64,000 nt of DNA from Deltaproteobacteria bacterium. Its GTDB lineage: Bacteria; Myxococcota_A; UBA9160; SMWR01. The position numbers and the translations under genes were made by a program. The number at the start of each line of letters is the position of its first letter. Positions within the stretch are counted from its first letter, which is position 1. The stretch spans positions 974-64,973 of the forward strand of contig JANNIY010000130.1 in the NCBI GenBank assembly GCA_031405455.1, given 5' to 3'. Below the pieces are notes generated by a model, which worked only from the letters and a program-made list of their open reading frames with translations, had not been told where the DNA came from and ran no database searches. Below, in pieces: positions 1 to 19,927 of this stretch.

Positions 1-188
1 CGCGCGTCTCGCGCAGGCGGCTGCTGCGAACGGCACTCCAGGCGGGAGCGCTGCTCGCGCTCACGCCGGGTGTGGGACTTTCAATCGTTGCCGAAGTGCT
101 GACCCCGGACGAGCTGCGCGCCTTCGACCAGCTCGCCTTGCGCCTCACACGCCTGCGCGGCGATCCACTGGCCGCCGCCTCCGCTTGA
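1..188 (+). CDS. 3' end of a hypothetical protein (start outside window) with a twin-arginine-like signal
   Basis: Reading frame 3 gives RVSRRRLLRTALQAGALLALTPGVGLSIVAEVLTPDELRAFDQLALRLTRLRGDPLAAASA, then TGA at 186-188. SRRRLL plus a hydrophobic stretch looks Tat-signal-like. It is absent from the ORF track because the start is off-window. Confidence 0.35.
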   Translation, partial: RVSRRRLLRTALQAGALLALTPGVGLSIVAEVLTPDELRAFDQLALRLTRLRGDPLAAASA

Positions 189-251
189 TTTTCGGCATTC
201 CTTCCAGGCGCGAAGCCGGATCCTGCGGATGCAAACGCCTGCCGCGCAGGG

Positions 252-1667
252 CTAGGAAGCCTGCGCGGGCGGCGTCGAGCGGACGCTGCGCTCGGCGCGC
301 CGGTAGAGCGTCTTGCGATCGATGCCCAGGATGCGAGCGGCCCGCACCTTGTTGCCGCCCGTGAGTTGCAGGATTTCGTCGATGTAGCGCTCTTCCACCT
401 CGCGCAGCGAGAGGCGCTTCTCGCCGGCCGCGCGTAGGAAGGCAGCGACCGGAGGCGTGTCCGACACGGTCGCAACCGCTCCGAGCGGCAGGTCCGCCGC
501 GCCGAGTTCGACGCCATCGCAGAGCGCGAGCGAGCGCTCGATCACGTTCTCGAGCTCGCGCGCGTTGCCCTTCCACGCACACGCCGCCAGCCGCTGCATG
601 GCTTCCGGCGACACCGTCCGGCGGGCACCGTCTCCGTGCCGATGCAGGAAGTATTCGACCAGCGCCGGAATGTCCTCGGGACGCTCCCGCAGCGGTGGGA
701 TGTACAGCGGAATTACGTTCAATCGATAGAAGAGATCCTCGCGGAAGCGGCCCTCCTCGATCTCGACTGCCAGATCCTTGTTCGTCGCCGCGACGATTCG
801 CACGTCGACTTTCACCGACTGCGTGCTTCCTACGGCGCGGATTTCGCGGTCCTGGATCACGCGCAGCAGCTTGCCCTGGAGGCCGAGCCCCATGTCGCCG
901 ATCTCATCGAGGAAGAGTGTGCCTCCATTCGCCTTCTCGAACAGACCCTGCTTGGAAGCGTGGGCACCGGTGAACGCGCCGCGCACGTGCCCGAACAGCT
1001 CGCTCTCGAGCAGACCTTCCGGTATCGCCGTGCAGTTGATCGGAATGAAAGGCTTGTCGGCGCGGCTGCCATGGAAATGCAGGGTGCGCGCGACGACCTC
1101 CTTGCCGGTTCCGCTCTCGCCTGTGATCAGCACCGAGCTGCGACCGTGCGCGATCTTGCGGATCAACGCGAAGATCTCCTGCATCGCGGGACTCTTTCCG
1201 ATCAGGTCGCCAAACGCGCTCGTGCGATCGACGGCGCGGCGCAAGCGACGGTTCTCGTCCTCGAGCGCACGCTGCTGGAGCGCGCGATCGACCGCGAACA
1301 TCACGACTTCAGGCTCGAAGGGTTTGGCGATGTAATCGAAGGCGCCGGCGCGCATCGCCTCGACGGCAGAGTCGATGCTGCCGAAGGCCGTCATCACGAT
1401 CGCGGGGGTCTCCGGTCGCAGCCGGTGCAGCTCGCCGATCAGCTCGATGCCGCTGCGCCCGGGCATGCGCACGTCGGTCAGCACGATGCCGAAGTCCAGC
1501 TCGCGGGCCAGGTCGAGCGCCGCGCCTGCGGAAGCTGCCTCGCGCACGTCGAAGCCGCGGTCGCGGAACAGGGACGCGAGCATCTGCCGCATCGCGACGT
1601 CGTCGTCCACCACGAGAAGGGTTCGGTTGGGGTCCATTGCTCCAATCATGAGCACATGCCGTGCCAT
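252..1667 (-). CDS. Sigma-54-dependent response regulator (NtrC family: REC + AAA+ + Fis-type HTH)
   Basis: REC N-terminus LLVVDDD...VLTDVRMPG. Walker A is GESGTGKE and the sigma-54 contact loop is GAFTGA. The C-terminal HTH is GNKVRAARILGIDRKTLYRR. Start is ambiguous: ATG at 1667, 1646 or 1637 (MDPNRTLLVVDDD). Confidence 0.93.
   Translation of the reverse strand: MARHVLMIGAMDPNRTLLVVDDDVAMRQMLASLFRDRGFDVREAASAGAALDLARELDFGIVLTDVRMPGRSGIELIGELHRLRPETPAIVMTAFGSIDSAVEAMRAGAFDYIAKPFEPEVVMFAVDRALQQRALEDENRRLRRAVDRTSAFGDLIGKSPAMQEIFALIRKIAHGRSSVLITGESGTGKEVVARTLHFHGSRADKPFIPINCTAIPEGLLESELFGHVRGAFTGAHASKQGLFEKANGGTLFLDEIGDMGLGLQGKLLRVIQDREIRAVGSTQSVKVDVRIVAATNKDLAVEIEEGRFREDLFYRLNVIPLYIPPLRERPEDIPALVEYFLHRHGDGARRTVSPEAMQRLAACAWKGNARELENVIERSLALCDGVELGAADLPLGAVATVSDTPPVAAFLRAAGEKRLSLREVEERYIDEILQLTGGNKVRAARILGIDRKTLYRRAERSVRSTPPAQAS
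1651..1666 (-). promoter_or_regulatory. Sigma-54 type -24/-12 match (site A) at the 5' end of the activator gene
   Basis: The minus strand reads TGGCACGGCATGTGCT (GG and GC 10 nt apart, as in TGGCAC-N5-TTGCW). The -12 C lies 15 nt upstream of the ATG at 1637. The site would be intragenic if the ATG at 1667 is used. Confidence 0.35.
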
Positions 1668-1767
1668 CGGCGACGACGCCCGAGAAAGCCGTACAGCCTG
1701 TTTCTCTGCACCTTCAGGCAACAGCCAGGGTCATTATGCCACAGTTTTGATAACAGGCGGGCCCGCC

Positions 1768-2790
1768 TCAGAACCGGTAGCCGACCTCGAGCCACCCGAG
1801 AGCGGCCGGCCCAGCGTCGACCGTATCGGCGTCGCCGCCGTGCTCGGCCTCCACTCGCCACTGCTGATAGACGACCGAACCCGCGCCCGCGGCGATCCGC
1901 CAGCGCTTCGTGGGAGACCAACGCAAGCCGACCAGCACGGGAACCCGGCGCTGGCGAAGCGTCGGCGCGCCCAGCGCGGCGCCGCGATCGTCGAGGAGGT
2001 GGGAATTGGATTCGTAGCGAGCGCGCAGCTGAAGCTCCAGCTTGGGATGCAGATCCACTCCGAACAACAGGCCCGCACCGTTCGACTTGAGCCGCATGTC
2101 ATCGCGGATCTTCCAACGAAAGCCGAACACGGGCTGGATGCTCACGCCGCCCTTCGCGAGGCGCGATCCGACTTCGACGCCGAGCGCGAGCGAAAACCGC
2201 GGGTTGAGCTCGAATCCCACGCCGACGGCCCCGGAGCCCTTCGCAGCGTCCGCGACCTGCGCCCCCTCCTCCCAACTCAGCCTGGCGCGTCCCTCGCCAA
2301 AGACCGACCAGCGCGGGTCGATCTCGTAAACCCCCCCGAGCCCGACTTCGAAGCCGTATAGCTCCTCGAAGAGATCGCCTCCGCCGAGGTCCGCCGCCAG
2401 CTCGCTGCGATCGCCGTCGTAGCCATAGAACCAGGCCTGGCCCGCGGTGCTCAATCGCAGCGCGAACGCCCTGGAAACCGGCACCTCCACACTCAGCCCG
2501 AACTCGGAGCGCAGCTCGTTGGCATCCGCCGGCCCGAAATCGGCGAGCACCGACAAGGTCTCCTCGGTGTAGCTGCGCACCCGCGTCTTGGACAACCCGA
2601 TCGAAACGAGCTCCACGATGTCGTCGGGCAACGGTGCGTCCCGCTCGTCCGCGTCGGGTTCGCCGCCAGAAGCAGCCGCGCCGAATGGGAGCCATAGCCA
2701 CACGACGATCCATGCGGTCCACCGAACACGCAGGCGCCAGGTTCGAGCGAGCGGATGCGCTTGCGCTGGACGCTTCAGCAGGTCTCGCAT
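1768..2790 (-). CDS. Hypothetical outer-membrane beta-barrel protein
   Basis: N-terminal hydrophobic signal WIVVWLWLPFGAAASG. Alternating amphipathic strands rich in G/Y/R/E follow. The C-terminus EVGYRF ends in the aromatic residue typical of OMPs. Confidence 0.6.
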   Translation of the reverse strand: MRDLLKRPAQAHPLARTWRLRVRWTAWIVVWLWLPFGAAASGGEPDADERDAPLPDDIVELVSIGLSKTRVRSYTEETLSVLADFGPADANELRSEFGLSVEVPVSRAFALRLSTAGQAWFYGYDGDRSELAADLGGGDLFEELYGFEVGLGGVYEIDPRWSVFGEGRARLSWEEGAQVADAAKGSGAVGVGFELNPRFSLALGVEVGSRLAKGGVSIQPVFGFRWKIRDDMRLKSNGAGLLFGVDLHPKLELQLRARYESNSHLLDDRGAALGAPTLRQRRVPVLVGLRWSPTKRWRIAAGAGSVVYQQWRVEAEHGGDADTVDAGPAALGWLEVGYRF

Positions 2791-2947
2791 GGCTGCGACG
2801 CAGCCTCCCTGCCTGTCACGTTATCCTCTTCTCACTGCCCGAGTGCAAGCAGGCAGCGGCGTGGGCGCAGAGGAGCTCGCTCCGGCTACGCTGCAGATCG
2901 CAGTCGGCCCCATTCTCGAACGGCGTACACCCGCGGAGGCGATTCCG

Positions 2948-3418
2948 ATGAACCGATGCAGCATGGCCACATCCGATGGAACGCGCAGCCCGTCGGAGCC
3001 GGCCCGGATTCGACTCCAGGCGCCGCTGCGCCGCTCGCTCGCACTTGCCGCCAGCTTGCTCGCCATCGGGTGCTCGACCCGCCAGGTCGAGGAGCCGGCG
3101 GGACGCGAAGTCTATCTGCGCCACTGCGCCGCCTGTCACGGCGACGCCGGGAAAGGCGACGGGCCGGTGGCGATCTCCCTGCGACAGCCGCCGTCGGATC
3201 TGACCACGATCGCCCGCCGCAACGGCGGCAGCTTCGACGAGCGGCGCGTGATGCAGGTGATCGATGGGCGCTCGCTCGTCGCGGCGCATGGCACGCGAAG
3301 CATGCCCGTGTGGGGCATCGTCTTCGAAGACGAACTCGAGGGCGAGCCGTATTCTGGATACACCTCGCTCCTGCGCTCGCGCAATCTGACGGATTATCTG
3401 CGTTCGATTCAGCAGTAG
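2948..3418 (+). CDS. c-type cytochrome lipoprotein (monohaem)
   Basis: ATG at 2948, lipobox LLAIGC, haem motif CAACH and a distal MPVWG. It is a paralogue of the CDS at 48679-49098. Confidence 0.8.
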   Translation: MNRCSMATSDGTRSPSEPARIRLQAPLRRSLALAASLLAIGCSTRQVEEPAGREVYLRHCAACHGDAGKGDGPVAISLRQPPSDLTTIARRNGGSFDERRVMQVIDGRSLVAAHGTRSMPVWGIVFEDELEGEPYSGYTSLLRSRNLTDYLRSIQQ

Positions 3419-3547
3419 TCCGGGTGGGGCGCACGCATCGGCTCGGAGACTCCCCGCGCCTGGCGGGATTCCCGTTGCGCCCCGCACCGGTCTGGGGCGG
3501 TTGTCGTCAGTTCGCGCGCTGCGCGTGCATGCGCTGACACCGCACGG

Positions 3548-3563
3548 CGGTACGCTCGTTGCA
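3548..3563 (+). promoter_or_regulatory. Sigma-54 type -24/-12 match (site B, GGTAC variant)
   Basis: CGGTACGCTCGTTGCA has a perfect TTGCA -12 element and correct spacing. The -12 C is 15 nt upstream of the ATG at 3577. Confidence 0.4.
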
Positions 3564-3576
3564 GGGGTGAAGCGGC

Positions 3577-4725
3577 ATGCGCGACGCTTCTCCCCTGCGT
3601 CCCCGGGCGCTCCCCGAGTTCGCAGACGTGCGCTCCCTTGCCGACCCTCGTCGGGGCCCTCTCGTCTCGCTCTACCTGCCGTTGCTGCGCGGCTTTCCGC
3701 ACGTGCGGCAGAACGCAGCCGCCTACCAGGGCGCCGTCGCGGAAGCCGAACTCCGACTCCAAGCCGCTGGCCTGTCCCCAGGCGAGGCCGCAGCCTCCGG
3801 CGAACAGCTCGCCGCCGTCGAAACGGATCTCCGGCGCTTCGAGCGCCGCGCGGCAGGCGTCGCCGTCTTTCGCGACCGCGCAACCCTTCACGCCTATGGC
3901 CTTCAGCAGGAGCCCGCGCGCTGCGTGATGGTTGCGGACAACTTTGCCCTGCGTCCGCTGCTGGCGGCCGTGCACCGCGACCGGCGCTACCACGTACTCG
4001 CGCTGTCGACGAATCGCGTTGCACTGTTCAAGGGGGATGCCTTCGGGCTGGCGACGATCCTGGCGCAGGGTGTACCCGCAAGCTTGGAGGATGCACTGGG
4101 GACCGAGCTGACCGCCAAGGAGCTACGCGTCAGTGGAACCCAAGCGGGCGCTGCCTCGCCGCGCTACTTCAGCCACGACAGCGGCCGCGACGAGCGCAAG
4201 CTCGATCTCAAGCGCTTTCATCTGCGAATCGCGCGCGCGATCGAGGCAGAACTCGTGGGCTGCGATGAGCCCCTCATCCTGGTCGCGGCACAAGCTCACC
4301 ATTCGGGATTGCGCGCCGCGCTGCGCCTGCCGTGCCTGCTTCCCACGGGTGTGGAGACCAGCCCAGATCATCTTTCGACGAGCGACCTGCACGCGCGTAC
4401 CTGGCCGCTCGTCGACGACGCCAGCGACGCAGAAGACGCGGCACTGGCGAGCGAGTACGAGGGCTTCGTCGCTCGCGGCAAGGGTCTGCACCGCATCAGC
4501 GACGTCGCGGCGGCCTCCGCTGCCGGGCGCGTACACCGGCTCTGGGTGACTCGCGACGAACGTCTGCCGGGGGCGATCGATCCCGCGAGCGGCGTGCTCG
4601 TCGGAGGCCGCCCCGAGGAGGACGTGCTCGACGGCATCGTCAGCCTGGTGCTGCGCCACGGCGGCGACGTGATCGTCAGCCGCTGCGTCCCGTCCGGCTC
4701 GAGCGTCGCAGCGGAGCTGCGCTGA
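3577..4725 (+). CDS. baeRF3-like protein (bacterial archaeo-eukaryotic release-factor family)
   Basis: 382 aa. Recalled family hallmarks are present: GPLVSLYLP near the N-terminus, RRYHVLALSTNRVALFKG in the middle, PLILVAAQ, and an acidic C-terminal domain. No database search was possible, so the family assignment is from memory. Confidence 0.6.
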   Translation: MRDASPLRPRALPEFADVRSLADPRRGPLVSLYLPLLRGFPHVRQNAAAYQGAVAEAELRLQAAGLSPGEAAASGEQLAAVETDLRRFERRAAGVAVFRDRATLHAYGLQQEPARCVMVADNFALRPLLAAVHRDRRYHVLALSTNRVALFKGDAFGLATILAQGVPASLEDALGTELTAKELRVSGTQAGAASPRYFSHDSGRDERKLDLKRFHLRIARAIEAELVGCDEPLILVAAQAHHSGLRAALRLPCLLPTGVETSPDHLSTSDLHARTWPLVDDASDAEDAALASEYEGFVARGKGLHRISDVAAASAAGRVHRLWVTRDERLPGAIDPASGVLVGGRPEEDVLDGIVSLVLRHGGDVIVSRCVPSGSSVAAELR

Positions 4726-4807
4726 TCCCATCCGCCCCGCCGCGCCGCCAGCACGGGACCTTCTGTCTCGCTCCGGACTCCGTGCGTGCCGTGCGTTCAT
4801 CTCGAAA

Positions 4808-4823
4808 CGGCACGCGTCTTGCT
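4808..4823 (+). promoter_or_regulatory. Sigma-54 type -24/-12 match (site C)
   Basis: CGGCACGCGTCTTGCT lies 50 nt upstream of the ATG at 4872. A strong SD (GGAGGGGAGAG) sits between them. Confidence 0.6.
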
Positions 4824-4871
4824 CCTCTACGCGGAGAGCGCAGCCAATCGCCTGCGCCAGGAGGGGAGAGC

Positions 4872-5078
4872 ATGCATCGCTCCGAAAGCGACCAGGGAAC
4901 CTCTTGCGCGGACTGCGGAGCGGCAGTTCTTGCGGGTGCGGAGGCCGGCTTCGACTTCGCTGAGGATGCCACGCTGTGCGCGAGCTGCGCGGCAAGGCGC
5001 GGTGGCTCCTACGACGCCCATCAGGAGCGCTGGGTGCGTCCGCCGCGAATCGCTGACCTCCTCGACGAGCCGCGCTGA
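4872..5078 (+). CDS. Small hypothetical protein with a CxxC...CxxC (Zn-ribbon-like) motif
   Basis: 68 aa: MHRSESDQGTSCADCGAAV...LCASCAARRG. The SD GGAGGGGAGAG is upstream. It lies inside the longer track ORF 4332-5078. Confidence 0.5.
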   Translation: MHRSESDQGTSCADCGAAVLAGAEAGFDFAEDATLCASCAARRGGSYDAHQERWVRPPRIADLLDEPR

Positions 5079-5122
5079 GCTGCGGCGCAAGCCAACGGCT
5101 TGCTGGGAACTCACCGAAGCAG

Positions 5123-5401
5123 GTGCAATCGGTGATGTCGCCCGAAGTACACACCTACAGGCCCGGCGATTCCATCGAAGACGTCGAGGCGACCCTGCGT
5201 CGCGCCCGGATCCGCCGTCTGCCCGTGGTCGACGAAGCCAAGCAACTGGTCGGAATCGTCTCGCTATCGGATTTGGCGCGGGCCGCGGCCCACTGTCGCC
5301 AGCAGAAGAAGCCCGCGGTCGGCGAGGCTGCCGTCGCGGAGACGCTCGCAGCCATCTGCCAGCCGCGGGAAACGGCGCCCCCTGAAGGCGCTGGAGACTG
5401 A
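5123..5401 (+). CDS. CBS domain protein (only one clear CBS repeat)
   Basis: VMSPEVHTYRPGDSIEDVEATLRRARIRRLPVVDEAKQLVGIVSLSDLARAA is a canonical single CBS motif. At 92 aa it is about half the usual CBS pair. Confidence 0.7.
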   Translation: MQSVMSPEVHTYRPGDSIEDVEATLRRARIRRLPVVDEAKQLVGIVSLSDLARAAAHCRQQKKPAVGEAAVAETLAAICQPRETAPPEGAGD

Positions 5402-5475
5402 GTCCAGCCCTTGCAAAACGCCAGGGCGAAGAGCACGCTCCGGCCGGGTTTTTCAACCATTGGAGGGAGTTTTAG

Positions 5476-5742
5476 ATGCGACGAGAACTAATCGCCGGCG
5501 CTGTCGCGGTAGGGATGCTCGGATTGGCGGGCTGCGCGACCAATGGCGACGTGGAAAAGATCAACAGCCGGCTCGATGCGCTCGACCAGCGAGTCGCGGG
5601 CGTCGAGACCGCTGCGCGCAACGCCGAGAGCCGCGCCACCGCCGCCGAGCAGGCTGCGGCCGACGCGCGGCGTGCCGCGCAGGCCGCCGAGGACTCGGCC
5701 CGCAAGTCCGAAGCGATCTTCCAGAAGCGGATCTCGAAGTAG
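5476..5742 (+). CDS. Braun-lipoprotein-like (Lpp-like) alanine-zipper lipoprotein
   Basis: SD GGAGGGAG is followed by the ATG. The signal carries lipobox LAGC. An Ala/Gln/Arg-rich coiled coil follows and the protein ends in a C-terminal Lys (KRISK), parallel to E. coli Lpp (LAGC...YRK). Confidence 0.85.
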   Translation: MRRELIAGAVAVGMLGLAGCATNGDVEKINSRLDALDQRVAGVETAARNAESRATAAEQAAADARRAAQAAEDSARKSEAIFQKRISK

Positions 5743-6660
5743 CCGACCCATTGGAGCGGTCTCTGGCGGCGGCAGCGTGCCCACCCGGGTGGGCACGCCG
5801 TTCGCGCGCGCGATCACACGCCGCACGGCAGCGATGTCTACGCGCTCGCCAAGACCGAGCGCTCGAGGCGTTTCGAGCGCCGCCGCCAGGGGGTCGGAGA
5901 TCCGACTGTAGACGTCCGGGTGCGCCTCGAGGAGCAGCTGGTCGCCTTCGCGCCCCCATTTGTACGGCTGGTAGACCAGCTGTAGCCGGGTACCCTCGCG
6001 AACGCGATCGTAGAGTCGGACGATGTCCTCCTCGTAGAATCGGACACAGCCGTGCGTCGCAATGCGCCCGATCGACCAGCGGACGTTGGTGCCGTGGAGC
6101 CCGTAGCTCGACGTCCCGATCGTCATCCAACGACTGCCGAGCGGGTTGTCGGGCCCGGGTGGAACGACGGCGGGGAGTTCGGGCTTGACCGCGCGAATCG
6201 ACGCCGGCACCCGCCACTCCGGCTCGCTGCGCTTCGCTCCGACGCGGTATTCGCCGACGGGCGTCGGATCGTCGGCATCGCCGATCGCCACGGCGAACAC
6301 CTCGGGGCCGTCCTCGACGCCGAAATCGTAGAGACGCATTTCCGGGATGTTCACGACGAGGCCCGCGGGCACCGCCTGCGGCAGCAGATAGCGCGTGGGG
6401 AGCCGCACGACCGTGCCGGGGTCGGGGATCCACGGGTCGAGGCCGGGATTCAACCGCGACACCGCTTCGAAGCCGAGCCGATGGCGCGCGGCGACGTCGA
6501 GCAACGTATCGTCGGGCAGCACGAAATCCGTCTGCACGACGCCCAGCGGCGGACGCAGAGCCGCGTAGACGTCGACTTCGGTTTCGCCCGCCGGGGGCGC
6601 GGCGCTCGCGCGCGCGGCGATCAGCAGCAAGGCGAGCGCCAGCCCGGGCGCCTGCCTGCG
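5488..6660 (-). CDS. L,D-transpeptidase with LysM-like + YkuD domains (ErfK/YbiS/YcfS architecture)
   Basis: LysM-like segment DTLLDVAARHRLGFEAVSRLNPGLDPWIPDPGTVVRLP. The YkuD core is SYGLHGTNVRWSIGRIATHGCVRF. The signal-like segment is RRQAPGLALALLLIAARASA. The 5' end is unresolved because no ATG/GTG/TTG lies near the signal. The frame has no stop before 5488. Confidence 0.8.
   Translation of the reverse strand, partial: RRQAPGLALALLLIAARASAAPPAGETEVDVYAALRPPLGVVQTDFVLPDDTLLDVAARHRLGFEAVSRLNPGLDPWIPDPGTVVRLPTRYLLPQAVPAGLVVNIPEMRLYDFGVEDGPEVFAVAIGDADDPTPVGEYRVGAKRSEPEWRVPASIRAVKPELPAVVPPGPDNPLGSRWMTIGTSSYGLHGTNVRWSIGRIATHGCVRFYEEDIVRLYDRVREGTRLQLVYQPYKWGREGDQLLLEAHPDVYSRISDPLAAALETPRALGLGERVDIAAVRRVIARANGVPTRVGTLPPPETAPMGRLLRDPLLEDRFGLAGRVLGGLRGTPRVGRSLLGGGGAALGVARSGLDARDSLVERIEPAVDLFHVAIGRAARQSEHPYRDSAGD
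5774..5797. terminator. Perfect 24-nt palindrome between convergent lpp-like and ldt genes
   Basis: GCGTGCCCACCCGGGTGGGCACGC lies 32 nt after the lpp-like stop. There is no U-tract, so it could be a bidirectional hairpin terminator or a protein-binding palindrome. Confidence 0.5.
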
Positions 6661-7272
6661 CCCGCGGCCGCGCTGCTCCTCGGCCTCTGGCTGGCCGGCT
6701 GCGCAGCCACTGCGCCCGCGCCGCCAGTCGCTTCTGCGCCCGGCGCACTCGACGGCTCGACCCCGCTGACGAGCGACGTAGCGTGCCCGCGCATCCAGTA
6801 CATCCTGATCCGCAAGCGCGAGCACCAGCTCGTGGCACGTTGCGAATCGGGGACGATGATCGTGATGACCGTCGCCATCGGCCGCGATCCCATCGGGACG
6901 AAGCAGGCGCACGGCGATCAACGCACGCCCGAGGGCAATTACCGGGTTTCCGGGTCGGCTCGTCACAGTCGTTTCCACCGCCTGATCCCCATCGACTATC
7001 CGTCGCGGCGCGACGCCGACGCGGCGCTCGCACGCGGCACGCTCACCGTGAGCGAGCATGCACGCATCGTCGCTGCGCACGCGCAAACTCGCACACCGCC
7101 GCAGGATACCGCGCTCGGCGGGCACCTTGGGCTGCATGGCGAGGGTCGGGAGTGGCGCGGCGAATCAGCGGGACTCGACTGGACGTACGGCTGCGTAGCG
7201 GTGCGCGACCATGAGATCGAATTCCTCGCACGGCGGGTGAGCCGCGGAACGTCCGTCTGGATCCTGCCGTAG
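6652..7272 (+). CDS. YafK-like L,D-transpeptidase-fold lipoprotein
   Basis: Lipobox LWLAGC. Motifs IQYILIRKREHQLVARCESG, GDQRTPEGNYRV, IPIDYPSRRD and HGEG...TYGCVAV parallel E. coli YafK (DpaA)-type proteins. The start codon is unresolved: in-frame CTG at 6652 or ATG at 6481. Confidence 0.7.
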   Translation: MPAPAAALLLGLWLAGCAATAPAPPVASAPGALDGSTPLTSDVACPRIQYILIRKREHQLVARCESGTMIVMTVAIGRDPIGTKQAHGDQRTPEGNYRVSGSARHSRFHRLIPIDYPSRRDADAALARGTLTVSEHARIVAAHAQTRTPPQDTALGGHLGLHGEGREWRGESAGLDWTYGCVAVRDHEIEFLARRVSRGTSVWILP

Positions 7273-7314
7273 CCGAAAACCAGGCGGGTGTTCACGCGCG
7301 CGCCAGGCGAAAGC

Positions 7315-8580
7315 TCAACCGGCGGAGGGGCCAGGCGAGTCGGCCCCGGGAAAGGCGACACGAAATTCGGTGCTCTCGCCGGGGGTGCTCGTCGCAGCGA
7401 TCGTCCCGCCGTGATCGGTCACGATGCCTTGGGCCACCATCAACCCCAGACCGTTGCCCTCGCCAGCCGGCTTCGTGGTGAAAAAAGGCTCGAAGATGCG
7501 CGGCAGATCTTGCTCGGCGATACCGGCGCCGGTGTCGGCGACACACAGCTCGATGCGACCCTCGGAGCCCGGGTGCAGCGATACGTGCAGGGTGCCGCCA
7601 TTCGGCATCGCGTCGGCGGCGTTGAGGAACAGATTCAAGAAGAGCTGTTGTAGCCGCTCGGGATCCGCGATCAGGCTCGGCGTCGGTTCGAACGCGCGCT
7701 CGACCTCGATACCGCGCCGCTTGAGCTTCTCCGACACGAAGGACAACGTGGTCTCGAGCAGCGGCTCGAGCGCAATCGGCACCCGCCGCCGGCGCCCCGG
7801 CCGCGCCATGTTGAGCAGCGTCTGGATGATCTTCGAGATGCGGGCGATCTGCTCCTGGATCGTCCGCAGCCGCCAGCGCGCCTGCTCGCCCGTCACCTCG
7901 GGCTCGAGCAGCTTCGCGTGCCCCTGGATCACGCCCATGGGCGTGCCGATTTCGTGGGCGAGCCCGGCGACCAGCGTGGCGATCGAAGCCAGCTCTTCCG
8001 CGGCCTTCGCCCGCGAGGCGGTCTGACGCAGCTCGGAGCCCTGCTCCTCGAAATCGCGCGCGAGGCGACGACTCTGCGCCTCGAGTTCGTGGGTGAGATA
8101 CTCGAGCCCGCTGTCGTGATCCTCGATGTACGCCTCGAGCGCGATCTGGGCGTCGAGCATCAGGAGTTTCTGGAGCGCGACCACCGTGCGCATCGCTCGC
8201 TCCGGGTCGGCCGCGTAGGTATCGAAGATCAGGGGTGTGAGCAGGGAGAGGTAGCCGGCGTAGGCGCCGAGGTACCAACGCGGCTCGAGACCGATCTTCT
8301 GGTGCACCTCGCCGATGCGCCGGCGCTGGGCGACAAAATCCTCGTCGAAGGTCGGGTTCGCGAGGCTGAGCAGATACTCGCGCTGCTTGATGAGGAGGCG
8401 TTCCTTCACTCCCGGCTCGCGGAGCAGCTCGCGGGTCGGGCCAAAGGAGAGCAGATTGCGATAGAAGGCCGCCACGAAACTCGCGGCGTTGCGCTCGAGG
8501 GCAGGCCCGAGCGCAGCGAGCAACTCCACGTCCGCCGCTGTCATTCCCAGGTAGCTGAGCTGCTGCTGAAGCTTGTTCAC
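7315..8580 (-). CDS. Globin-coupled sensor histidine kinase
   Basis: The N-terminal protoglobin/GCS-like domain reads FVAAFYRNLLSF...RRRIGEVHQKIGLEPRWYLGAYAGYL, with a candidate proximal His. The H-box is LAHEIGTPMG, the N-box NLFLNAADAM and the G-boxes DTGAGI / GNGLGLMVA. Start is a GTG at 8580 or an ATG at 8544/8676. Confidence 0.85.
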   Translation of the reverse strand: MNKLQQQLSYLGMTAADVELLAALGPALERNAASFVAAFYRNLLSFGPTRELLREPGVKERLLIKQREYLLSLANPTFDEDFVAQRRRIGEVHQKIGLEPRWYLGAYAGYLSLLTPLIFDTYAADPERAMRTVVALQKLLMLDAQIALEAYIEDHDSGLEYLTHELEAQSRRLARDFEEQGSELRQTASRAKAAEELASIATLVAGLAHEIGTPMGVIQGHAKLLEPEVTGEQARWRLRTIQEQIARISKIIQTLLNMARPGRRRRVPIALEPLLETTLSFVSEKLKRRGIEVERAFEPTPSLIADPERLQQLFLNLFLNAADAMPNGGTLHVSLHPGSEGRIELCVADTGAGIAEQDLPRIFEPFFTTKPAGEGNGLGLMVAQGIVTDHGGTIAATSTPGESTEFRVAFPGADSPGPSAG

Positions 8581-8726
8581 TCCCCACAGGGTCGGCGTCA
8601 CAGCCGGCAGAGTCAATGGCGGCCGCCCCCCCTCGCCCCACTCCCCCCGCCTGCTCGCAGGGGCGCTTCGACTCACCAGAGCCGCCCGCAGCGACGCAAC
8701 GCGGCGCCTGGCGGGTCGCGACCGCT

Positions 8727-8742
8727 TGGCACATCGAATGCA
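8727..8742 (+). promoter_or_regulatory. Sigma-54 type -24/-12 match (site D)
   Basis: TGGCACATCGAATGCA. The -12 C is 16 nt upstream of the ATG at 8757. Confidence 0.5.
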
Positions 8743-8756
8743 CCGGGAGTCGGCTC

Positions 8757-9230
8757 ATGCAGCGGGTCCCTACGCCGGAACGCACCCCCACCGCAATTCG
8801 CGAGCCGCGAAGCCCGCGCGTGCGCGACGTCATGCGGCGCGACTTCATCACGATTTCGCAGCAGGAGAGCGTGCTCGAGGCCCTGGAGCTGATGCGGCTC
8901 GCGCGCCTGCGTCATCTGACGATCGCCGATCAAGGCGTGCTGATCGGAATCCTCAGCTACCGAGACCTTCAAGACGAGCTGCTCGCACAGATCGACCCGG
9001 CGGCGGGGTTCCAGGGCGAGCCCGCGGTCCAACATTCCGCGGCCGTCGAGCACGTCTCGGGCTCTCCCTACTCGATCAGCCCGGATGCGACGCTTGCCGA
9101 AGCGGCGGCCCGGCTCGAGCGACTCCGCGTCGGCTGTCTGCCGGTCGTCGAACCGGGGGAACAGGGTCTGCGGGTCGTGGGCCTGCTCACGGAGATGGAT
9201 CTGCTGCGCGCCGCCTTTCAGACGCCCTGA
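8757..9230 (+). CDS. CBS domain pair protein
   Basis: Two CBS repeats: VRDVMRRDFITISQQESVLEALELM...LIGILSYRDL and VSGSPYSISPDATLAEAAARLERLRVGCLPVV...VVGLLTEMDLL. Confidence 0.85.
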   Translation: MQRVPTPERTPTAIREPRSPRVRDVMRRDFITISQQESVLEALELMRLARLRHLTIADQGVLIGILSYRDLQDELLAQIDPAAGFQGEPAVQHSAAVEHVSGSPYSISPDATLAEAAARLERLRVGCLPVVEPGEQGLRVVGLLTEMDLLRAAFQTP

Positions 9231-9268
9231 GGCGAAGCCCGCAGGAACGCGGTACCCCCTCCGCGATC

Positions 9269-10705
9269 ATGGAATCGCTCGCCGCACAGTTCGTCGCAGG
9301 ACTCGCTCGCGGGGCGGCGGACCCCGCACTCCTGCGGAGCGCCGGCGAGCCCGAGCCCGAGGCCGCCGCGGCGGCGTTTCAACGCGCGGCGCGCGACCGC
9401 GACCTCGCGAATTCGCACGCGCAGTGGGCGCCCGTGCTCTTGCGCACCGCGCGCCCCGGTTTCGGCGCGCAGTGCCTCGAGGAGATCGCGCAACGCGCGC
9501 GCGAGCGAACCGGGGGGCGCCTCGACATTGCAGGCTGCCCGGCGCTGCCCCACGTGCTCGGCTCGAGCAGCTTTCTCGCGCGTTTGCTGCTGCGCCATCC
9601 GGAGTGGATCCGCGAGATTGCAGGCGCACTCCCCGACGCGCCTCCCCCTCGCGCAATCGATCCGGATTGGGACGCGATCCGCGCGGCGAAGTACACCGGG
9701 CTGTTGCGCATCGCCGCGCGCGATCTGCTCGCGCGTCCCTTCGCGAACAGCCTGCGCGAACTCTCGGACCTCGCCGATCGCTGTCTCGCCGCGGCGCTCG
9801 CGTGCGCCGCGCGGGAGACCGAGGTCGAGGCGCCGGCCCTGCTCGCGCTCGGAAAGCTCGGAGGCCACGAGCTCAACTTTTCCTCCGACGTCGATCTGCT
9901 CTTCGTCTACGAACCCCCGCCGACGGTCGACCCGCTCGAACACAATCACGCCGTCGCGCGCCTGATTCGACGTCTGAAGACGGCGCTCGAGGTGCGCAGC
10001 GAAGACGGCTTCGGCTATCGCGTCGATCTGGGGCTGCGCCCCGAAGCCGACACCGGTGTGCTCGCAAATCCGGTCGACGTCGCGATCGGATACTACGAGG
10101 GCTTTGGCGCGGAATGGGAACGTCAAATGCTGATCCGCTTGCGCCACGTCGCCGGACCGGCCGACGTGGGCGAAGGTTTTGCGCGGGAGATCGCGCCATT
10201 CGTATACCGGCGGCTGATCGACCCCGGGGTCATGCGCTCTGTGCGCGACATGAAGGCGCGCATCGAGGACGAGCGTCGCAGCGCGGGGCGGGACCTCGAA
10301 TTCGACCTGAAGGAGGGGCCCGGCGGGATCCGCGATGTCGAGTTCCTCGTGCAGTCGCTCCAGCTCTTCTTCGGCGGCCGCGATCTCGCGCTGCGCACGG
10401 GCAACGTGCTCGCAGCGCTGGCGGCCCTCGCGCAGCTCGGACACCTGCCGGAAGCGACCGCGGCTGCGCTGGTTTCGGCCTACACCTGGTTGCGACGCGC
10501 CGAGCATGCGCTGCAGCTCGCGGAGGAGCATCAGACGGCCCGCTTCCCGAGCGACCGCGCCGGCCAGATCGCGCTGGCGCGGCGCATGGGTTACCCGGAG
10601 GCGGAAGCCGAGGCGGCGCGGACCGGACTGCTCGAAGACCGGATGGCCGCGCGCAGCGAGGTGCGCGCGCACTTCGAGGCGCTGGTGCTGCGGGAAGGCG
10701 AGTGA
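9269..10705 (+). CDS. glnE: Glutamine synthetase adenylyltransferase, N-terminal (adenylyl-removing) half
   Basis: GlnE-type nucleotidyltransferase motif GKLGGHELNFSSDVDLLFVY plus GlnE-family helical regions. It ends in TGA at 10703-10705, at the position of the inter-domain linker of full-length GlnE. Confidence 0.85.
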   Translation: MESLAAQFVAGLARGAADPALLRSAGEPEPEAAAAAFQRAARDRDLANSHAQWAPVLLRTARPGFGAQCLEEIAQRARERTGGRLDIAGCPALPHVLGSSSFLARLLLRHPEWIREIAGALPDAPPPRAIDPDWDAIRAAKYTGLLRIAARDLLARPFANSLRELSDLADRCLAAALACAARETEVEAPALLALGKLGGHELNFSSDVDLLFVYEPPPTVDPLEHNHAVARLIRRLKTALEVRSEDGFGYRVDLGLRPEADTGVLANPVDVAIGYYEGFGAEWERQMLIRLRHVAGPADVGEGFAREIAPFVYRRLIDPGVMRSVRDMKARIEDERRSAGRDLEFDLKEGPGGIRDVEFLVQSLQLFFGGRDLALRTGNVLAALAALAQLGHLPEATAAALVSAYTWLRRAEHALQLAEEHQTARFPSDRAGQIALARRMGYPEAEAEAARTGLLEDRMAARSEVRAHFEALVLREGE

Positions 10706-12018
10706 CGGAGACCCTCGCGCAGCGGCTGCGCGGAGCGCTCGCGGGCTCGCCCCTCGCCGAGCGCCTCGCGACGGCAGCGGCGCCGTTGCTCGAGCGCCGT
10801 TCGGAAGACGCCGCCGTGCGACGTCTCGCAGGCCCTGCCCTCACCGGCCTCGCGCGCGGCGTCGCGACACAACCCGAATTCGCCGGCTTCCTATCGCATC
10901 GTCCGGAGCTGCTCGAGCGCATCGCGCAGGCGAACGCGGAAACGCTCGGCCGCCGCGCCAGCGAACTCGCTGCGAGCGCGCAGGCGGAAACGTCCGGCGA
11001 TCTCGAGAGCGAGCTCGATGCGCTGCGCCTGCTGCGTCGCGAGGAGACCGCGATCGCAGTCTGCTGCGATTTTGGCGGATTGGCGGCGTTCGAGCAGGTG
11101 TCGGCCTTTCTCTCGATCCTCGCCGAAACGATCACGGCGCGCGCCCTGCGGCTCGCGCGACGCGGCCCCGGCTTGTCGCGGCAGACCTTTGCGGCGATCG
11201 GAATGGGCAAGATCGCCGGGCGCGAGTTCACCCATCACTCGGATCTCGACTTGATTTTTCTCTACCAGGGGGGACCCGATGAAGTCGCGCTGGCTTCCAA
11301 GATCGGACAACGCCTGATCGCCTACCTCACGACGATGACGGGCGCCGGCATCGCCTACGCCGTCGACACGCGCTTGCGTCCCTCGGGCCAGAAGGGAATG
11401 CTCGTCACCTCGTTCGAGGGCTTCACGCGCTACCAGCGCGAGACCGCAGAAACCTGGGAGCATCTGGCACTGCTGCGCTCGCGCCCGATCGCAGGGGAGC
11501 TGACGATCGCGAACGAGGTCCTGGACGACGTGCGCCACTTCATCCTGCGCGGCGGGCAGAAGCCGTGGCCCTACCTCGCCGATCTGCGCGCGCGCGTCGA
11601 GCGCGAGCGTGCGAAGGAGGATGCCACGCAGCTCGCCTTCAAGACGGGTGCTGGCGGCCTGATGGACGTCGATTTTCTTGCCGGCGGCGGGCTGCTCGAA
11701 CGGGGCACCCGGAACTTTCCGGCGTTCCCGAGCGTCGCCGCGATGCTCGCCTGCACGCTCCCGGCGGCAGCAACGCAGAGATTGCTCGCCGACTACGGCT
11801 GGCTGCGCCGCAGCGAGGCGCGTGCGCGCTGGGTCGCGGGCCGGGCCGTCGAGGAGATCCCGGCGGGGGGCGAGTCGTTGGTCGCGATTGCGGAACTCAG
11901 CGAACCCGGCCTTGCCCCCGCGGCGCTGCTCGACCAGATCCGCGCCGTGCGCCGTCGGATCCGCGCCGCCTATCAGGCGGTCGTCGACGCCGAAACGATC
12001 ACCGCGTTCCCGGGTTGA
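10702..12018 (+). CDS. glnE: Glutamine synthetase adenylyltransferase, C-terminal (adenylyltransferase) half
   Basis: The GTG at 10702 overlaps the upstream stop (GTGA). A second NTase motif, GMGKIAGREFTHHSDLDLIFLY, and RLRPSGQKG are present. Confidence 0.8.
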   Translation: MTETLAQRLRGALAGSPLAERLATAAAPLLERRSEDAAVRRLAGPALTGLARGVATQPEFAGFLSHRPELLERIAQANAETLGRRASELAASAQAETSGDLESELDALRLLRREETAIAVCCDFGGLAAFEQVSAFLSILAETITARALRLARRGPGLSRQTFAAIGMGKIAGREFTHHSDLDLIFLYQGGPDEVALASKIGQRLIAYLTTMTGAGIAYAVDTRLRPSGQKGMLVTSFEGFTRYQRETAETWEHLALLRSRPIAGELTIANEVLDDVRHFILRGGQKPWPYLADLRARVERERAKEDATQLAFKTGAGGLMDVDFLAGGGLLERGTRNFPAFPSVAAMLACTLPAAATQRLLADYGWLRRSEARARWVAGRAVEEIPAGGESLVAIAELSEPGLAPAALLDQIRAVRRRIRAAYQAVVDAETITAFPG

Positions 12019-12068
12019 GCGACCGCGCGCCCGCTTCGGGTACCCTGAAACCCGACCCGGAGGAAAGC

Positions 12069-13253
12069 ATGACCGCGCGGCTCGCCTATCCCGCCTTCGA
12101 CTGCGACAACCACTACTACGAAGCGCTCGACGCCTTCACCCGCCACATGGACCCGCGGCTCGCGAAGCGCGCCGTCCAGTGGGCGGTGATCGACGGCCGC
12201 AAGCGGCTGTTGGTGGCAGAGCGCATCAATCGCTTCATCCCCAATCCCACCTTCGACCCCGTCGCAAAAGCCGGCTGCCTCGATCGCTTCTTTCGCGGCG
12301 ACAACCCCGAGGGTCTCGACATCCGCGCCGCCTTCGGCGAGCTCGAGCCGATCCGCCCGGCCTATCGCGACCGCGAGGCGCGGCTGGCGCTGATGGACGA
12401 GCAGGGGATCGAAGGCTGCCTCCTGTTTCCGACGCTCGGCGTCGGCATCGAGCACCCGTTGCGCCACGACGCCGAGTTGACGCACGCCACGCTGCACGCC
12501 TTCAACCAGTGGCTGGACGAAGATTGGGGCTTCGCCTGGCGCGAACGCATCTTCGCCGCGCCCATGCTCTCGCTGATGGACGTACAGCGGGCCGTGACGG
12601 AGCTCGAGTGGGTGCTCGCACGCGACGCGCGCGTGGTGCTACTGCGCGCGGCGCCGGTGCCCGGCGCCAGACGTCGCTCGCTCGGCGATCGCGCGTTCGA
12701 TCCCTTCTGGGCGCGCGTGAATGAAGCCGGCATCACGGTCGCCTTTCACGCCGGCGAGAGCGGCTATGGCGAGTACGCATCGCATTGGGGAGAGCCCGAG
12801 AACCTGGAAGCCTTCGGCGGCGGGCCGTTCCGGAGCGTCACGCAGACCGACCGCTCGATCTACGACGCGCTCGCGGCGCTGATCATCCACGGCGTCTTCC
12901 AGCGCTTCCCCAACGTGCGTGTCTGCAGCATCGAAAACGGCTCGGAATGGGTGCACAGCCTGCTCTCGAAGCTGAAGAAAGCCGAGCGCATGAATGTGCA
13001 CGCCTTCCTCCAGCCGCCGATCGAGACTTTTTGTCGCCACATCTCGGTGGCGCCCTACTATGAAGAAGACGTGCGTGCGCTCGCCGACACGATCGGCATC
13101 GACAAAGTCCTGCTCGGCTCGGACTTCCCACATGCCGAGGGCCTCGCCGACCCGCTCTCGTTTCTCGACGAGCTGAAGGCTTTCACGCCCGACGATGTCC
13201 GCCTCGTGATGCGCGAAAACGGCAAACGCCTGGTGACACACCAAAGGCCGTAG
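12069..13253 (+). CDS. Amidohydrolase-2 family metal-dependent hydrolase
   Basis: SD GGAGGAAAG precedes the ATG at 12069. DCDNHYY at the N-terminus and GSDFPHAEG near the C-terminus are typical of the TIM-barrel amidohydrolase_2 family. Confidence 0.75.
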   Translation: MTARLAYPAFDCDNHYYEALDAFTRHMDPRLAKRAVQWAVIDGRKRLLVAERINRFIPNPTFDPVAKAGCLDRFFRGDNPEGLDIRAAFGELEPIRPAYRDREARLALMDEQGIEGCLLFPTLGVGIEHPLRHDAELTHATLHAFNQWLDEDWGFAWRERIFAAPMLSLMDVQRAVTELEWVLARDARVVLLRAAPVPGARRRSLGDRAFDPFWARVNEAGITVAFHAGESGYGEYASHWGEPENLEAFGGGPFRSVTQTDRSIYDALAALIIHGVFQRFPNVRVCSIENGSEWVHSLLSKLKKAERMNVHAFLQPPIETFCRHISVAPYYEEDVRALADTIGIDKVLLGSDFPHAEGLADPLSFLDELKAFTPDDVRLVMRENGKRLVTHQRP

Positions 13254-13318
13254 TCGATTTCGCTCTCTTGTCTGCGCCGCGTGTATTCGCGTAATCGACG
13301 ATCGCCTTCGGCATGCCA

Positions 13319-13759
13319 TCACGCCGGGCCGGGGCGCTTTCCCTGCCCTGCTCGGCGCAGCGCGCCCATCACGTCCTCCCGCGCGATGATGCCCACGACG
13401 CGGCCTGCGTCCACCACCGGCAAGCTCTTGCTCCGCGTGTCCACCAGTTTCTGGAGCACCCGCGTGAGCGGCGTGCGCGGGCAAACGCTGAGCAGATCGC
13501 GCGACATCACCTCCGACACCGGCCGCTCGAAAACACGCTCGAACGCCGGCAGGATCACGTCCTCGGAGAAGGCAAACGCCTCGAGCAGATCGAGCGAGGT
13601 CACGAAGCCCACCGGTCGCTCCGCGGCATCGACCACCGGCAGCCCGTTCCAGCCGTGCTTCTCGAGCAGTGCCTCGGCCTCGGCGAGCGTCGTCTCCTCG
13701 CGAACGCAAACCGGGCGCGACATCACATCCTGGACCTGGTAGTCGAGAAATTCGTACAT
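13319..13759 (-). CDS. CBS domain pair protein
   Basis: 146 aa with two CBS repeats: VQDVMSRPVCVREETTLAEAEALL...GFVTSLDLL and VSEVMSRDLLSVCPRTPL...VVGIIAREDVM. Confidence 0.9.
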   Translation of the reverse strand: MYEFLDYQVQDVMSRPVCVREETTLAEAEALLEKHGWNGLPVVDAAERPVGFVTSLDLLEAFAFSEDVILPAFERVFERPVSEVMSRDLLSVCPRTPLTRVLQKLVDTRSKSLPVVDAGRVVGIIAREDVMGALRRAGQGKRPGPA

Positions 13760-13819
13760 GGCTCCGCCTCCCTCACGCGGCCGTCGCCGGCCCCAGTTTC
13801 CAAATCCGGATCTCGAACC

Positions 13820-15241: not shown

Positions 15242-15253
15242 CGCGAATCGACC

Positions 15254-15979: not shown

Positions 15980-16006
15980 CCTCGCCCTCCTCAGCCTCTT
16001 TGCAGG

Positions 16007-16022
16007 TGCAGAATCGGTGCCA
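16007..16022 (-). promoter_or_regulatory. Sigma-54 type -24/-12 match (site E)
   Basis: The minus strand reads TGGCACCGATTCTGCA. The -12 C is 29 nt upstream of the ATG at 15979. Confidence 0.6.
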
Positions 16023-16146
16023 GCGTTTGCGAGCCGCACGAGCCTCCGCAACGTCGTGTGTGCGGCGACCTGCCTCAGTCGAGGCCCCCTCCTACCCGGA
16101 TTCCCCTGGCTGGTGAGAACCCGTTCGGACGCGCGGTTCCCGCCGG

Positions 16147-18278: not shown

Positions 18279-18325
18279 GGGTCCTCCCTTGGCCAGGTCC
18301 AACCCGGCAACCTTCCCCTGGCTAA

Positions 18326-18341
18326 AGCAGATCACGTGCCA
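18326..18341 (-). promoter_or_regulatory. Sigma-54 type -24/-12 match (site F)
   Basis: The minus strand reads TGGCACGTGATCTGCT. It is intergenic, with the -12 C 49 nt upstream of the USP ATG. Confidence 0.65.
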
Positions 18342-18475
18342 AGCGGTCGCGGCGATGCAGGCGCCACCAACCTGAAATTCCATTCAGCGACTGGGTTGAT
18401 AGGGAACAGTCCTAGCCGAAAACGTAGCCCATTGCCACAGTTTTAGGTTCGCGCGAGCCAGCGAAATCAGATGGA

Positions 18476-18898: not shown

Positions 18899-18957
18899 GC
18901 GGCGAGGTCACTCCTCTTCTTGCGCGCGGCGGGGCGCTTCCGCTGGCAAAGACTACC

Positions 18958-18973
18958 CGCAAACAGCGTGCCA
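18958..18973 (-). promoter_or_regulatory. Sigma-54 type -24/-12 match (site G)
   Basis: The minus strand reads TGGCACGCTGTTTGCG, an almost perfect TGGCACG-N4-TTGC. It lies 61 nt upstream of the hemerythrin ATG, with SD AGAGGAG in between. Confidence 0.65.
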
Positions 18974-19007
18974 GAAACCCCGGCGGATCGTTATCCCCTG
19001 CCCCGAC

Positions 19008-19807: not shown

Positions 19808-19927
19808 GCGGGACGTAAGGTTCCGGCTACAGCGCTACAGAGATTGGTCCCGATCCGGTAGCCTGTCTCGCCGCGAACCCCAGAAGGCTACGCTCGTCGC
19901 TGCTGGGCTCGCCGGAGGCTCATCCGC

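Follow-up and report, generated by a model that had tools for sequence, protein, structure and literature searches.

Sigma-54 promoter elements at a conserved 14-16 nt from the start codon in a Myxococcota locus: candidates for near-leaderless transcription

Introduction

Much work has been done on sigma-54 promoters and on leaderless mRNAs, which are usually found in different organisms and have been treated separately. In the leaderless mRNAs of Actinobacteria, Deinococcus-Thermus, archaea and some alpha-proteobacteria, a sigma-70-type -10 box lies at a fixed 6-8 nucleotides (nt) upstream of the ATG, and to our knowledge the classic leaderless-rich phyla lack sigma-54. For the sigma-54 genes of Escherichia coli, Bonocora et al. 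predict the transcription start site (TSS) 19 bp past the centre of the 17-nt motif, that is, 12 nt after the C of the -12 element (PMC4591121). Among the E. coli protein genes behind intergenic sigma-54 sites, the shortest leader predicted in this way, that of rutA, measures 18 nt; the next two measure 20 and 21 nt, and predicted leaders are typically 25-90 nt long (PMC4591121, Table 1). Differential RNA sequencing in Campylobacter jejuni placed the TGCTt element 8-13 nt upstream of the TSS, which corresponds to ~10-16 nt from the C (PMC3847290). In Myxococcus xanthus, the bacterial enhancer-binding protein gene pexR has been proposed to give a leaderless mRNA (≤5 nt), in that case from a sigma-A promoter (PMC12754779). 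Here, we describe a 64,000-nt stretch of DNA from a Deltaproteobacteria bacterium (positions 974 to 64,973 of contig JANNIY010000130.1, assembly GCA_031405455.1; hereafter, the window), in which three sigma-54-type -24/-12 elements, sites A, B and D, lie only 15-16 nt from the ATG of the gene behind them, and we weigh the reading that their transcripts are near-leaderless.

A full-text literature search that paired “leaderless” with sigma-54, sigma54 or RpoN turned up TSS atlases and reviews in which no sigma-54 promoter is described as giving a leaderless mRNA, and leader length is not mentioned in a 2025 cross-phylum sigma-54 survey or in a paper on the Desulfovibrio vulgaris sigma-54 regulome. 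The genes behind the three sites encode an NtrC-type response regulator and sigma-54 activator (site A), a family 3 baeRF, which is a bacterial homologue of the archaeo-eukaryotic release factor (site B), and a CBS-pair protein followed by GlnE-like genes (site D). A protoglobin-coupled histidine kinase is encoded divergently from the CBS gene. The mycobacterial DosS/DosT-DosR system is a hypoxia and dormancy regulon built around a haem-based sensor kinase, with the LuxR-type regulator DosR. The window has a G+C content of ~68%, and the relatives nearest to it are metagenome-assembled genomes that carry the label Myxococcota or “uncultured delta proteobacterium”.

Results

Conservation of the promoter-to-ATG spacing

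The distances from the C of the -12 element to the A of the ATG that a preliminary description of the window had given (15, 15 and 16 nt at sites A, B and D; Table 1) match a direct reading of the sequence. That description had made its case depend on the spacing being conserved in related genomes, which it is: -12 C and ATG lie 14-16 nt apart in 29/29 orthologous promoter-gene pairs from three gene families. The syntenic loci behind this count came from one genome scan and one metagenome scan with a baeRF alignment and also carry the activator and kinase-CBS-GlnE genes; more distant loci came from seven look-ups by CBS homologue. At site A, the distance is 15-16 nt in 9/9 orthologous activator loci, a set that includes a lineage at ~47% CBS identity (L099); at site B, it is 14-15 nt in 9/9 close-clade baeRF loci (66-75% protein identity); and at site D, it is 15-16 nt in all 11 distinct CBS loci.

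The elements themselves have been kept along with the distance. GG and GC dinucleotides stand exactly 10 nt apart at A, B and D, within flanks that resemble TGGCAC-N5-TTGCW. At site A, the motif TGGCA(C/T)-N5-(A/G)TGCT is retained in 9/9 orthologous loci; at site B, GGTA(C/T)G-N4-TTGCA is invariant in the 9 close-clade loci and appears as GG(T/C)ATG-N4-TTGCA in 11 loci of a distant clade; and at site D, all 11 distinct CBS loci have TGGCAC-N5-nTGCA, down to a protein identity of 47%. Over 9 loci for A, 20 for B (two clades) and 11 for D, the flanks have diverged around motif columns that do not vary, and no other block in the three intergenic regions is as well conserved as the motif. The 13-14 nt gap between motif and ATG, on the other hand, can hardly be aligned among orthologs. 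The N-terminal tail of the CBS protein comprises 16, 17, 21 or 22 amino acids (aa) depending on the lineage, and yet the promoter-to-ATG distance stays at 15-16 nt. With tail length free to vary and the distance fixed, the constraint ties the start codon to the promoter and not to the protein domain. By analogy, this would be the behaviour of leaderless genes, whose -10 box keeps a fixed distance to the ATG.

How far such matches could have arisen by chance in G+C-rich DNA, and thus not be promoters at all, depends on how strictly the motif is drawn. With TGGCAC-N5-TTGCW and at most one mismatch, the window holds 7 matches against 0.97 expected, a count that 0/100 shuffles reach, and sites A and D belong to this class with one mismatch each. 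Site B has two mismatches, a class in which no enrichment is seen (24 matches versus 18.6 expected), the bare pattern GG-N10-GC-N14-ATG likewise occurs in the window at its chance rate (13 matches versus 14.5 expected), and one sigma-54-like match, at 6626-6641 on the minus strand, is probably intragenic; all three observations would fit an origin by chance. Because the loose pattern is found at the chance rate, significance rests on motif quality, real start codons and conservation, and the promoter-ATG geometry is meaningful only with a strong motif and a genuine start codon. Under simple base composition, an ATG at offset 15-16 (counted from the -12 C) in 3/9 sites has P ~4e-4. The variant seen at site B, TGGTATG-N4-TTGC, is that of the experimentally validated sigma-54 promoter of Xylella glnA (PMC3224663). 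Chance is contradicted by the conservation of the three motifs across many diverged loci, and we regard it as scarcely credible.

The other six sites of the preliminary description (4808, 16007, 18326, 18958, 51019 and 51138) do lie ~29-61 nt from their ATG behind strong Shine-Dalgarno (SD) sequences, as it had said, and the SDs of these comparators include GAGGAGG, AAGGGAGG and AGGAGGGGAG. The genes behind the window's sigma-54-type promoters other than A, B and D encode a second CBS protein, a universal stress protein (Usp), a hemerythrin and several unknowns. The window showed no RpoN box, so that rpoN would have to lie elsewhere in the genome.

Start codons

The preliminary description had offered the alternative that the annotated start codons are wrong and the true ones lie further downstream. 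For the CBS gene it pointed to a GTG at 8818; the in-frame GTG is actually at 8820-8822, and a second possible start would be the ATG of the DVMRRDF motif at 8832, either giving a leader of 60-80 nt. At sites A and B, stop codons and protein N termini rule such starts out. The activator begins with MDPNRTLLVVDDD, its MDP/MEPxRTLLVVDDD sequence is conserved, and LLVVDDD is the first strand of the receiver, so that any downstream start would delete this strand; in two orthologs (L012 and L001), in-frame stops occur 6 and 12 nt upstream of the ATG. At site B, 32 baeRF homologues, most of them exactly 382 aa long, align from M1 in both clades, conserved residues begin at P13, P13 and R19 are kept in at least 90% of the 32 sequences, and an in-frame TGA precedes the ATG of the window by 9 nt.

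For the CBS gene, downstream starts draw on the poor conservation of the first 20 codons, which diverge without codon-position bias (0.56, 0.59 and 0.51 by position), on gene callers that start some homologues at the MRRDF methionine and so produce 131-aa versions, and on the HSP20 case described below, which demonstrates that mis-assignment happens. However, only the window has GTG at 8820, where orthologs read GTC, GTC, GTT and GTC, which makes this codon an unlikely start. The V-R-D-V codons before the conserved methionine (M26) change only at synonymous third positions and are part of the CBS fold, whose Pfam match begins at residue 22; the VRDV codons are thus translated. There is no SD ahead of 8820 or 8832, the sole positionally conserved start upstream of VRDV is the promoter-proximal ATG, and this ATG holds its place relative to the promoter even with tails of 16, 17 and 22 aa. 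We therefore consider wrong start annotation at the three sites very improbable.

All 29 orthologous copies start with ATG, and a C precedes it (-1) in 23/30 copies. Both the C at -1 and the uniform ATG had been considered as signs of a TSS at the A of the start codon and were dropped, as neither sets these copies apart from the SD-led genes of the window. Other candidate starts were likewise set aside: the upstream in-frame ATGs at 1649 and 1667 (window only) and at 8616 are not conserved, and a TTG or ATG that recurs 18 nt upstream is the TTGCA/ATGCA of the -12 element itself. Across ~60 CBS homologues, gene callers assign tails of 13-27 residues, most often 21. In the window, the tail spans 21 codons (8757-8819) with ~55% divergence at every codon position and yet has the same length in five syntenic loci; length without sequence is conserved there and in most of the ~60 homologues.

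HSP20 in two relatives (L001 and L093), with an ATG 15 nt from a sigma-54 motif, at first appeared to be a fourth gene with the short spacing and was rejected, for an ortholog (L092) places the real start 51 nt downstream, behind AGGGAGG. At the HSP20 loci, the true start lies behind AGGGAGG/AGGAGG. The gene is found downstream of the kinase in relatives, and the window has no HSP20 there.

Predicted transcription starts and two interconverting architectures

With the TSS offset taken from the E. coli and C. jejuni studies (PMC4591121; PMC3847290), the mRNAs of sites A, B and D are predicted to begin mostly 0-4 nt before the AUG, and up to 5-6 nt before it at the low C. jejuni end. In many site D orthologs, a G stands at offset 12-13, as read directly from the sequences (gGCTCATG, cGCATG), and would plausibly be the initiating purine.

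Further support for such a start comes from related genes that follow the same promoters at a greater distance. In the distant baeRF clade (40-46% identity; L003-L006 and L022-L031), the element lies exactly 28 nt from the ATG in 11/11 loci, and a strong GGAGG starts at offset 15-16, the very position taken by the ATG at the short sites. The second CBS gene of the window (15254-15979) is likewise 29 nt from its element, with GAGGAGG from offset 16, while in its ortholog in L016 (element 20690-20705) the ATG itself stands at offset 15. Orthologous promoter-gene pairs thus switch between a form with the ATG at offset 15-16 and one with a strong GGAGG from offset 15-16 and the ATG at exactly 28-29. 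In this lineage, either the SD or the AUG would sit ~3-4 nt after the expected sigma-54 start position. As the SD-led versions need a TSS at or before offset 14, they lend independent support to a TSS near offset 12-13, which in the short versions leaves a leader of 2-4 nt.

SD-like tracts and the case for longer transcripts

The preliminary description had concluded that these transcripts exclude any SD. This stands for the predicted sigma-54 transcripts, in which none is expected, and does not stand for the DNA, where SD-like strings are present in the gap. We scored the gaps by their duplex energy with the anti-SD ACCUCCUU against random 14-mers of window composition, with P values that are indicative only, since orthologs are not independent. 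The reference values are -2.8 kcal/mol for random 14-mers and -9.7 for real SDs of the same lineage. The site A gaps vary in sequence, are purine-rich in all orthologs and average -5.3 kcal/mol (P = 0.005 for such SD-likeness), and those of site B average -6.3 kcal/mol over 9 loci (P = 0.0002). At site D, they are mostly pyrimidine-rich and average -0.8 kcal/mol over 11 loci, SD-poorer than random (P = 0.005 for such SD-poorness). The promoter-proximal 14 nt of the distant baeRF clade are not SD-like (-1.9 kcal/mol), so that an SD-like tract is no general feature of these promoters. A sigma-54 transcript cannot hold the A and B tracts, and yet they are conserved, which argues for additional, longer transcripts at these two sites.

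Taken further, this argument would make ordinary leadered transcripts from upstream the mRNAs that are translated at all three genes, either initiated at unrecognised promoters or extended from the cytochrome c or outer-membrane-protein genes by read-through. The ATG-adjacent sigma-54 sites would then contribute a transcript that is translated poorly or have their main effect on the DNA itself, where a stable sigma-54 holoenzyme closed complex, for instance, could brake upstream transcription until the activator fires. Besides the tract itself, which is conserved in the A and B gaps down to the distant activator copy in L099, this explanation can point to the co-oriented genes upstream of A and B in the window, to the conserved AT-rich sequence that precedes A by ~95 nt and contains a -10-like hexamer, to the dual sigma-A and sigma-54 promoters documented at M. 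xanthus ahpC (PMC12754779), and to the many E. coli sigma-54 binding sites that are not obviously productive promoters (PMC4591121). What it leaves unexplained is a promoter-ATG distance held at 15-16 nt throughout the lineages while tail length and gap sequence drift. Co-oriented upstream genes are moreover lacking at site D, where the SD-poor gap means that a long transcript would be no better equipped, and ahead of the activator gene in L002 and L017, where the cytochrome c gene is divergent; nor did the scanned regions contain a sigma-70 consensus promoter. We consider it unlikely that leadered transcripts account for all three sites. With its divergent neighbour and no SD across orthologs, site D is, as judged from the sequence, the cleanest candidate for near-leaderless transcription.

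Upstream blocks and neighbouring genes

The three promoters are preceded, at 55-110 nt, by conserved blocks with no clear dyad in common (Table 1). In the block upstream of site B (CTGGGGCGGTTGTCGTCAG), CTGGGGC and CAG are invariant in 9 loci. A shared activator-site motif for A, B and D (TGGGG-N9-ACAG-like) was tried and abandoned, its regular expression matching only at B in the window. Candidate blocks resembling TGGGGC..CAG do occur upstream of B and D, AAAACTGTGGCA(T)AATG is common to site A and the promoter of the Usp gene, where it precedes the minus-strand motif at 18326-18341 by ~95 nt, and a palindrome, GGGATTCCC, is found at 3465-3473, ~110 nt upstream of the baeRF ATG; all of these are candidates for activator sites or for a second promoter. 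An Rfam scan of positions 1-20000 returned no known RNA element.

The AAA+ domain of the activator encoded at 252-1637 contains a GAFTGA motif. The divergent arrangement of kinase and CBS-GlnE genes is retained in all relatives; homology of the kinase begins near residue 31, so that its true start is probably near 8586. A single 977-aa frame (9085-12018, plus strand) overlaps the end of the CBS gene in the window where relatives have two GlnE-like genes of 478 and 438 aa, and the first GlnE-like gene of the window probably starts just after 9230. Directly downstream of the baeRF gene, a sigma-54-like motif at 4808-4823 (plus) with a strong AGGAGGGGAG SD precedes a cysteine-rich open reading frame (ORF) of 68 aa (4872-5078, plus; CADCG...CASC) that has no Pfam match. 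The overlapping antisense ORFs 5488-7137 (minus) and 5986-7272 (plus) both match the YkuD L,D-transpeptidase family, at different places; relatives have a minus-strand gene of ~465 aa beside a plus-strand gene of 138 aa in this region, and this side-by-side order marks the overlap in the window as a high-G+C ORF artefact. Several genes of the window together have the look of a stress or low-oxygen regulon (252-1637, 3577-4725, 7315-8676, 8757-12018, 15254-15979, 17829-18278 and 18476-18898); besides the kinase and the activator, the set includes the baeRF, two CBS-pair proteins, GlnE-like enzymes, the Usp and the hemerythrin.

Table 1. Promoter elements, genes and conserved blocks discussed in the text (window coordinates unless a locus is named).
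Feature	Position	Strand	Remarks
Site A sigma-54 -24/-12 element, TGGCACggcatGTGCT	1666..1651	minus	-12 C at 1652; A of ATG at 1637; distance 15 nt
Site B sigma-54 -24/-12 element, CGGTACgctcgTTGCA	3548..3563	plus	-12 C at 3562; ATG at 3577; distance 15 nt
Site D sigma-54 -24/-12 element, TGGCACatcgaATGCA	8727..8742	plus	-12 C at 8741; ATG at 8757; distance 16 nt
Site A gap, promoter element to ATG	1638..1650	minus	SD-like GGAG at 1643-1640
Site B gap	3564..3576	plus	SD-like GGGGTGAAG at 3564-3572; in-frame TGA at 3568-3570
Site D gap	8743..8756	plus	GGAG at 8746-8749 in window
NtrC-type response regulator/sigma-54 activator gene (site A)	252..1637	minus	Pfam: receiver, AAA+, HTH_8; ATG 1637-1635
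baeRF family 3 gene (site B)	3577..4725	plus	382 aa; Pfam match
CBS-pair gene (site D)	8757..9230	plus	157 aa; poorly conserved 21-aa N-terminal tail; GlnE-like genes 3'
Protoglobin-coupled histidine kinase gene	7315..8676	minus	Divergent from CBS gene
Small c-type cytochrome gene (CAACH)	2948..3418	plus	Canonical GGAGG SD; co-oriented, 158 nt upstream of baeRF gene
AT-rich conserved block, AAAACTGTGGCATAATGACCC	1727..1747	minus	~95 nt upstream of site A ATG; candidate activator site or second promoter
Conserved block, CTGGGGCGGTTGTCGTCAG	3492..3510	plus	54-57 nt upstream of site B -24 element; candidate activator site
Conserved block, AGGGGCGCTTCGACTCACCAG	8659..8679	plus	Upstream of site D; resembles site B block
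Comparator sigma-54 element	16007..16022	minus	29 nt to ATG; GAGGAGG SD; second CBS gene 15254-15979
Comparator sigma-54 element	18326..18341	minus	49 nt to ATG; AAGGGAGG SD; Usp gene 17829-18278
Comparator sigma-54 element	18958..18973	minus	61 nt to ATG; AGAGGAG SD; hemerythrin gene 18476-18898
Sigma-54 motifs ahead of HSP20 (relatives)	L001 13954-13969; L093 1440-1455; L092 1372-1387	minus	

Discussion

On balance, we lean towards near-leaderless transcripts from sigma-54 promoters, as the only form at site D and with leadered transcripts beside them at A and B. All three sites would be activator-dependent sigma-54 promoters, probably forming one regulon under the protoglobin-coupled kinase and the NtrC-type activator of the locus. 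The sequences show the motif, the spacing, the start codons and their conservation; we infer the position of the TSS, the mode of translation and the acting activator as follows. RNA polymerase would start ~12-13 nt (range 10-16) after the -12 C, that is, 0-4 nt before the AUG, and the resulting mRNAs, having no room for an SD, would take the leaderless route, with the ribosome recognising an AUG at or near the 5' end. For the CBS-GlnE operon behind site D, this route would probably be the only mode. At A and B, the conserved weak SD-like tract overlaps the -9..-2 region of the promoter and suggests a leadered transcript from upstream, which would provide basal SD-dependent expression to which the sigma-54 promoter adds inducible, SD-independent expression. 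The leadered transcript of the baeRF gene could be read-through from the cytochrome c gene and that of the activator gene may come from a putative promoter, perhaps the AT-rich block ~95 nt upstream; for an activator gene, whose expression would otherwise be wholly self-dependent, such a basal transcript with an SD is biologically sensible. The spacing and the start codons of the preliminary description hold in this account, while its picture of three purely leaderless genes gives way to one in which leadered transcripts are probable at A and B.

Several points weigh against near-leaderless transcription. Leader length is extrapolated from other bacteria, and an offset of 15-16 exceeds a perfectly leaderless design by 3-4 nt; in E. 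coli, even a few extra 5' nucleotides reduce leaderless translation. The SD-like tract at A and B makes sense only on a longer transcript, and a leadered mRNA could be the main translated species at both. Simple scans for sigma-70 promoters and terminators in 1600-3600 and 8500-8800 found nothing, so the second transcripts at A and B gain no positive evidence from them and are deduced from the tract. The CBS tail has no codon-position bias, and its translation is deduced from the conserved ATG and not from a coding signature. Finally, short geometry can arise spuriously, as HSP20 in L001 and L093 shows.

A wider reading is more tentative, and we would stop just short of expecting it to hold: a conserved low-oxygen or stress regulon of uncultured Myxococcota, comprising the protoglobin kinase, the NtrC-type activator and targets such as the baeRF, CBS-GlnE and other CBS proteins, would couple sigma-54 transcription to SD-independent translation, with mRNAs starting ≤4 nt from the AUG and orthologs switching to a minimal SD leader. 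If true, these would be a class of mRNAs, sigma-54-dependent and leaderless, that had not been described before, in which activator-dependent, tightly controlled transcription feeds directly into SD-independent initiation, and induction of the regulon would be tied to a mode of translation that keeps working under limited canonical initiation. There would also be consequences for the bootstrapping of the regulon's own activator, from a weak SD-dependent basal mRNA and an inducible leaderless one. In practical terms, TGGCAC-N5-TTGCA followed by an ATG 15-16 nt on would become a start-codon signature for the annotation of Myxococcota, and a three-promoter locus with SD-led orthologs would offer a natural system for testing how far from the 5' end an AUG remains usable. 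The finding would concern researchers of sigma-54 and of translation initiation alike.

Comparison with known systems

By testable sequence criteria, sites A, B and D would be placed among the sigma-54 promoters, and in spacing and conservation they resemble leaderless genes. They share the GG-N10-GC core and the TGGCAC/TTGCA flanks with the canonical promoters of E. coli glnAp2, pspA and hypA, Klebsiella nifH and Xylella glnA, and the likeness extends to a GAFTGA-type AAA+ activator nearby, candidate activator blocks 55-110 nt upstream and a plausible autoregulation of the activator. They differ from the E. coli sigma-54 genes in that predicted leaders there measure at least 18 nt (PMC4591121), whereas those predicted here measure 0-4 nt and have no room for an SD. 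With leaderless mRNA systems, the locus has in common the fixed promoter-ATG spacing, an ATG in every copy, the lack of an SD at D and the interconversion with SD-led orthologs; it departs from them in using sigma-54 instead of sigma-70, in a predicted residual leader of 2-4 nt in place of a 5'-terminal AUG, and in the SD-like tract that two of the three genes keep in their DNA. DosR-type regulons are similar by gene content only, through a universal stress protein, CBS-pair proteins, HSP20 (in the relatives), hemerythrin and a haem (protoglobin) kinase, but the regulator here is an NtrC-type sigma-54 activator and not a LuxR-type DosR. The pexR/ahpC region of M. xanthus belongs to the same phylum, and the dual sigma-A/sigma-54 promoters of ahpC set a precedent for the two transcripts that we propose at sites A and B (PMC12754779).

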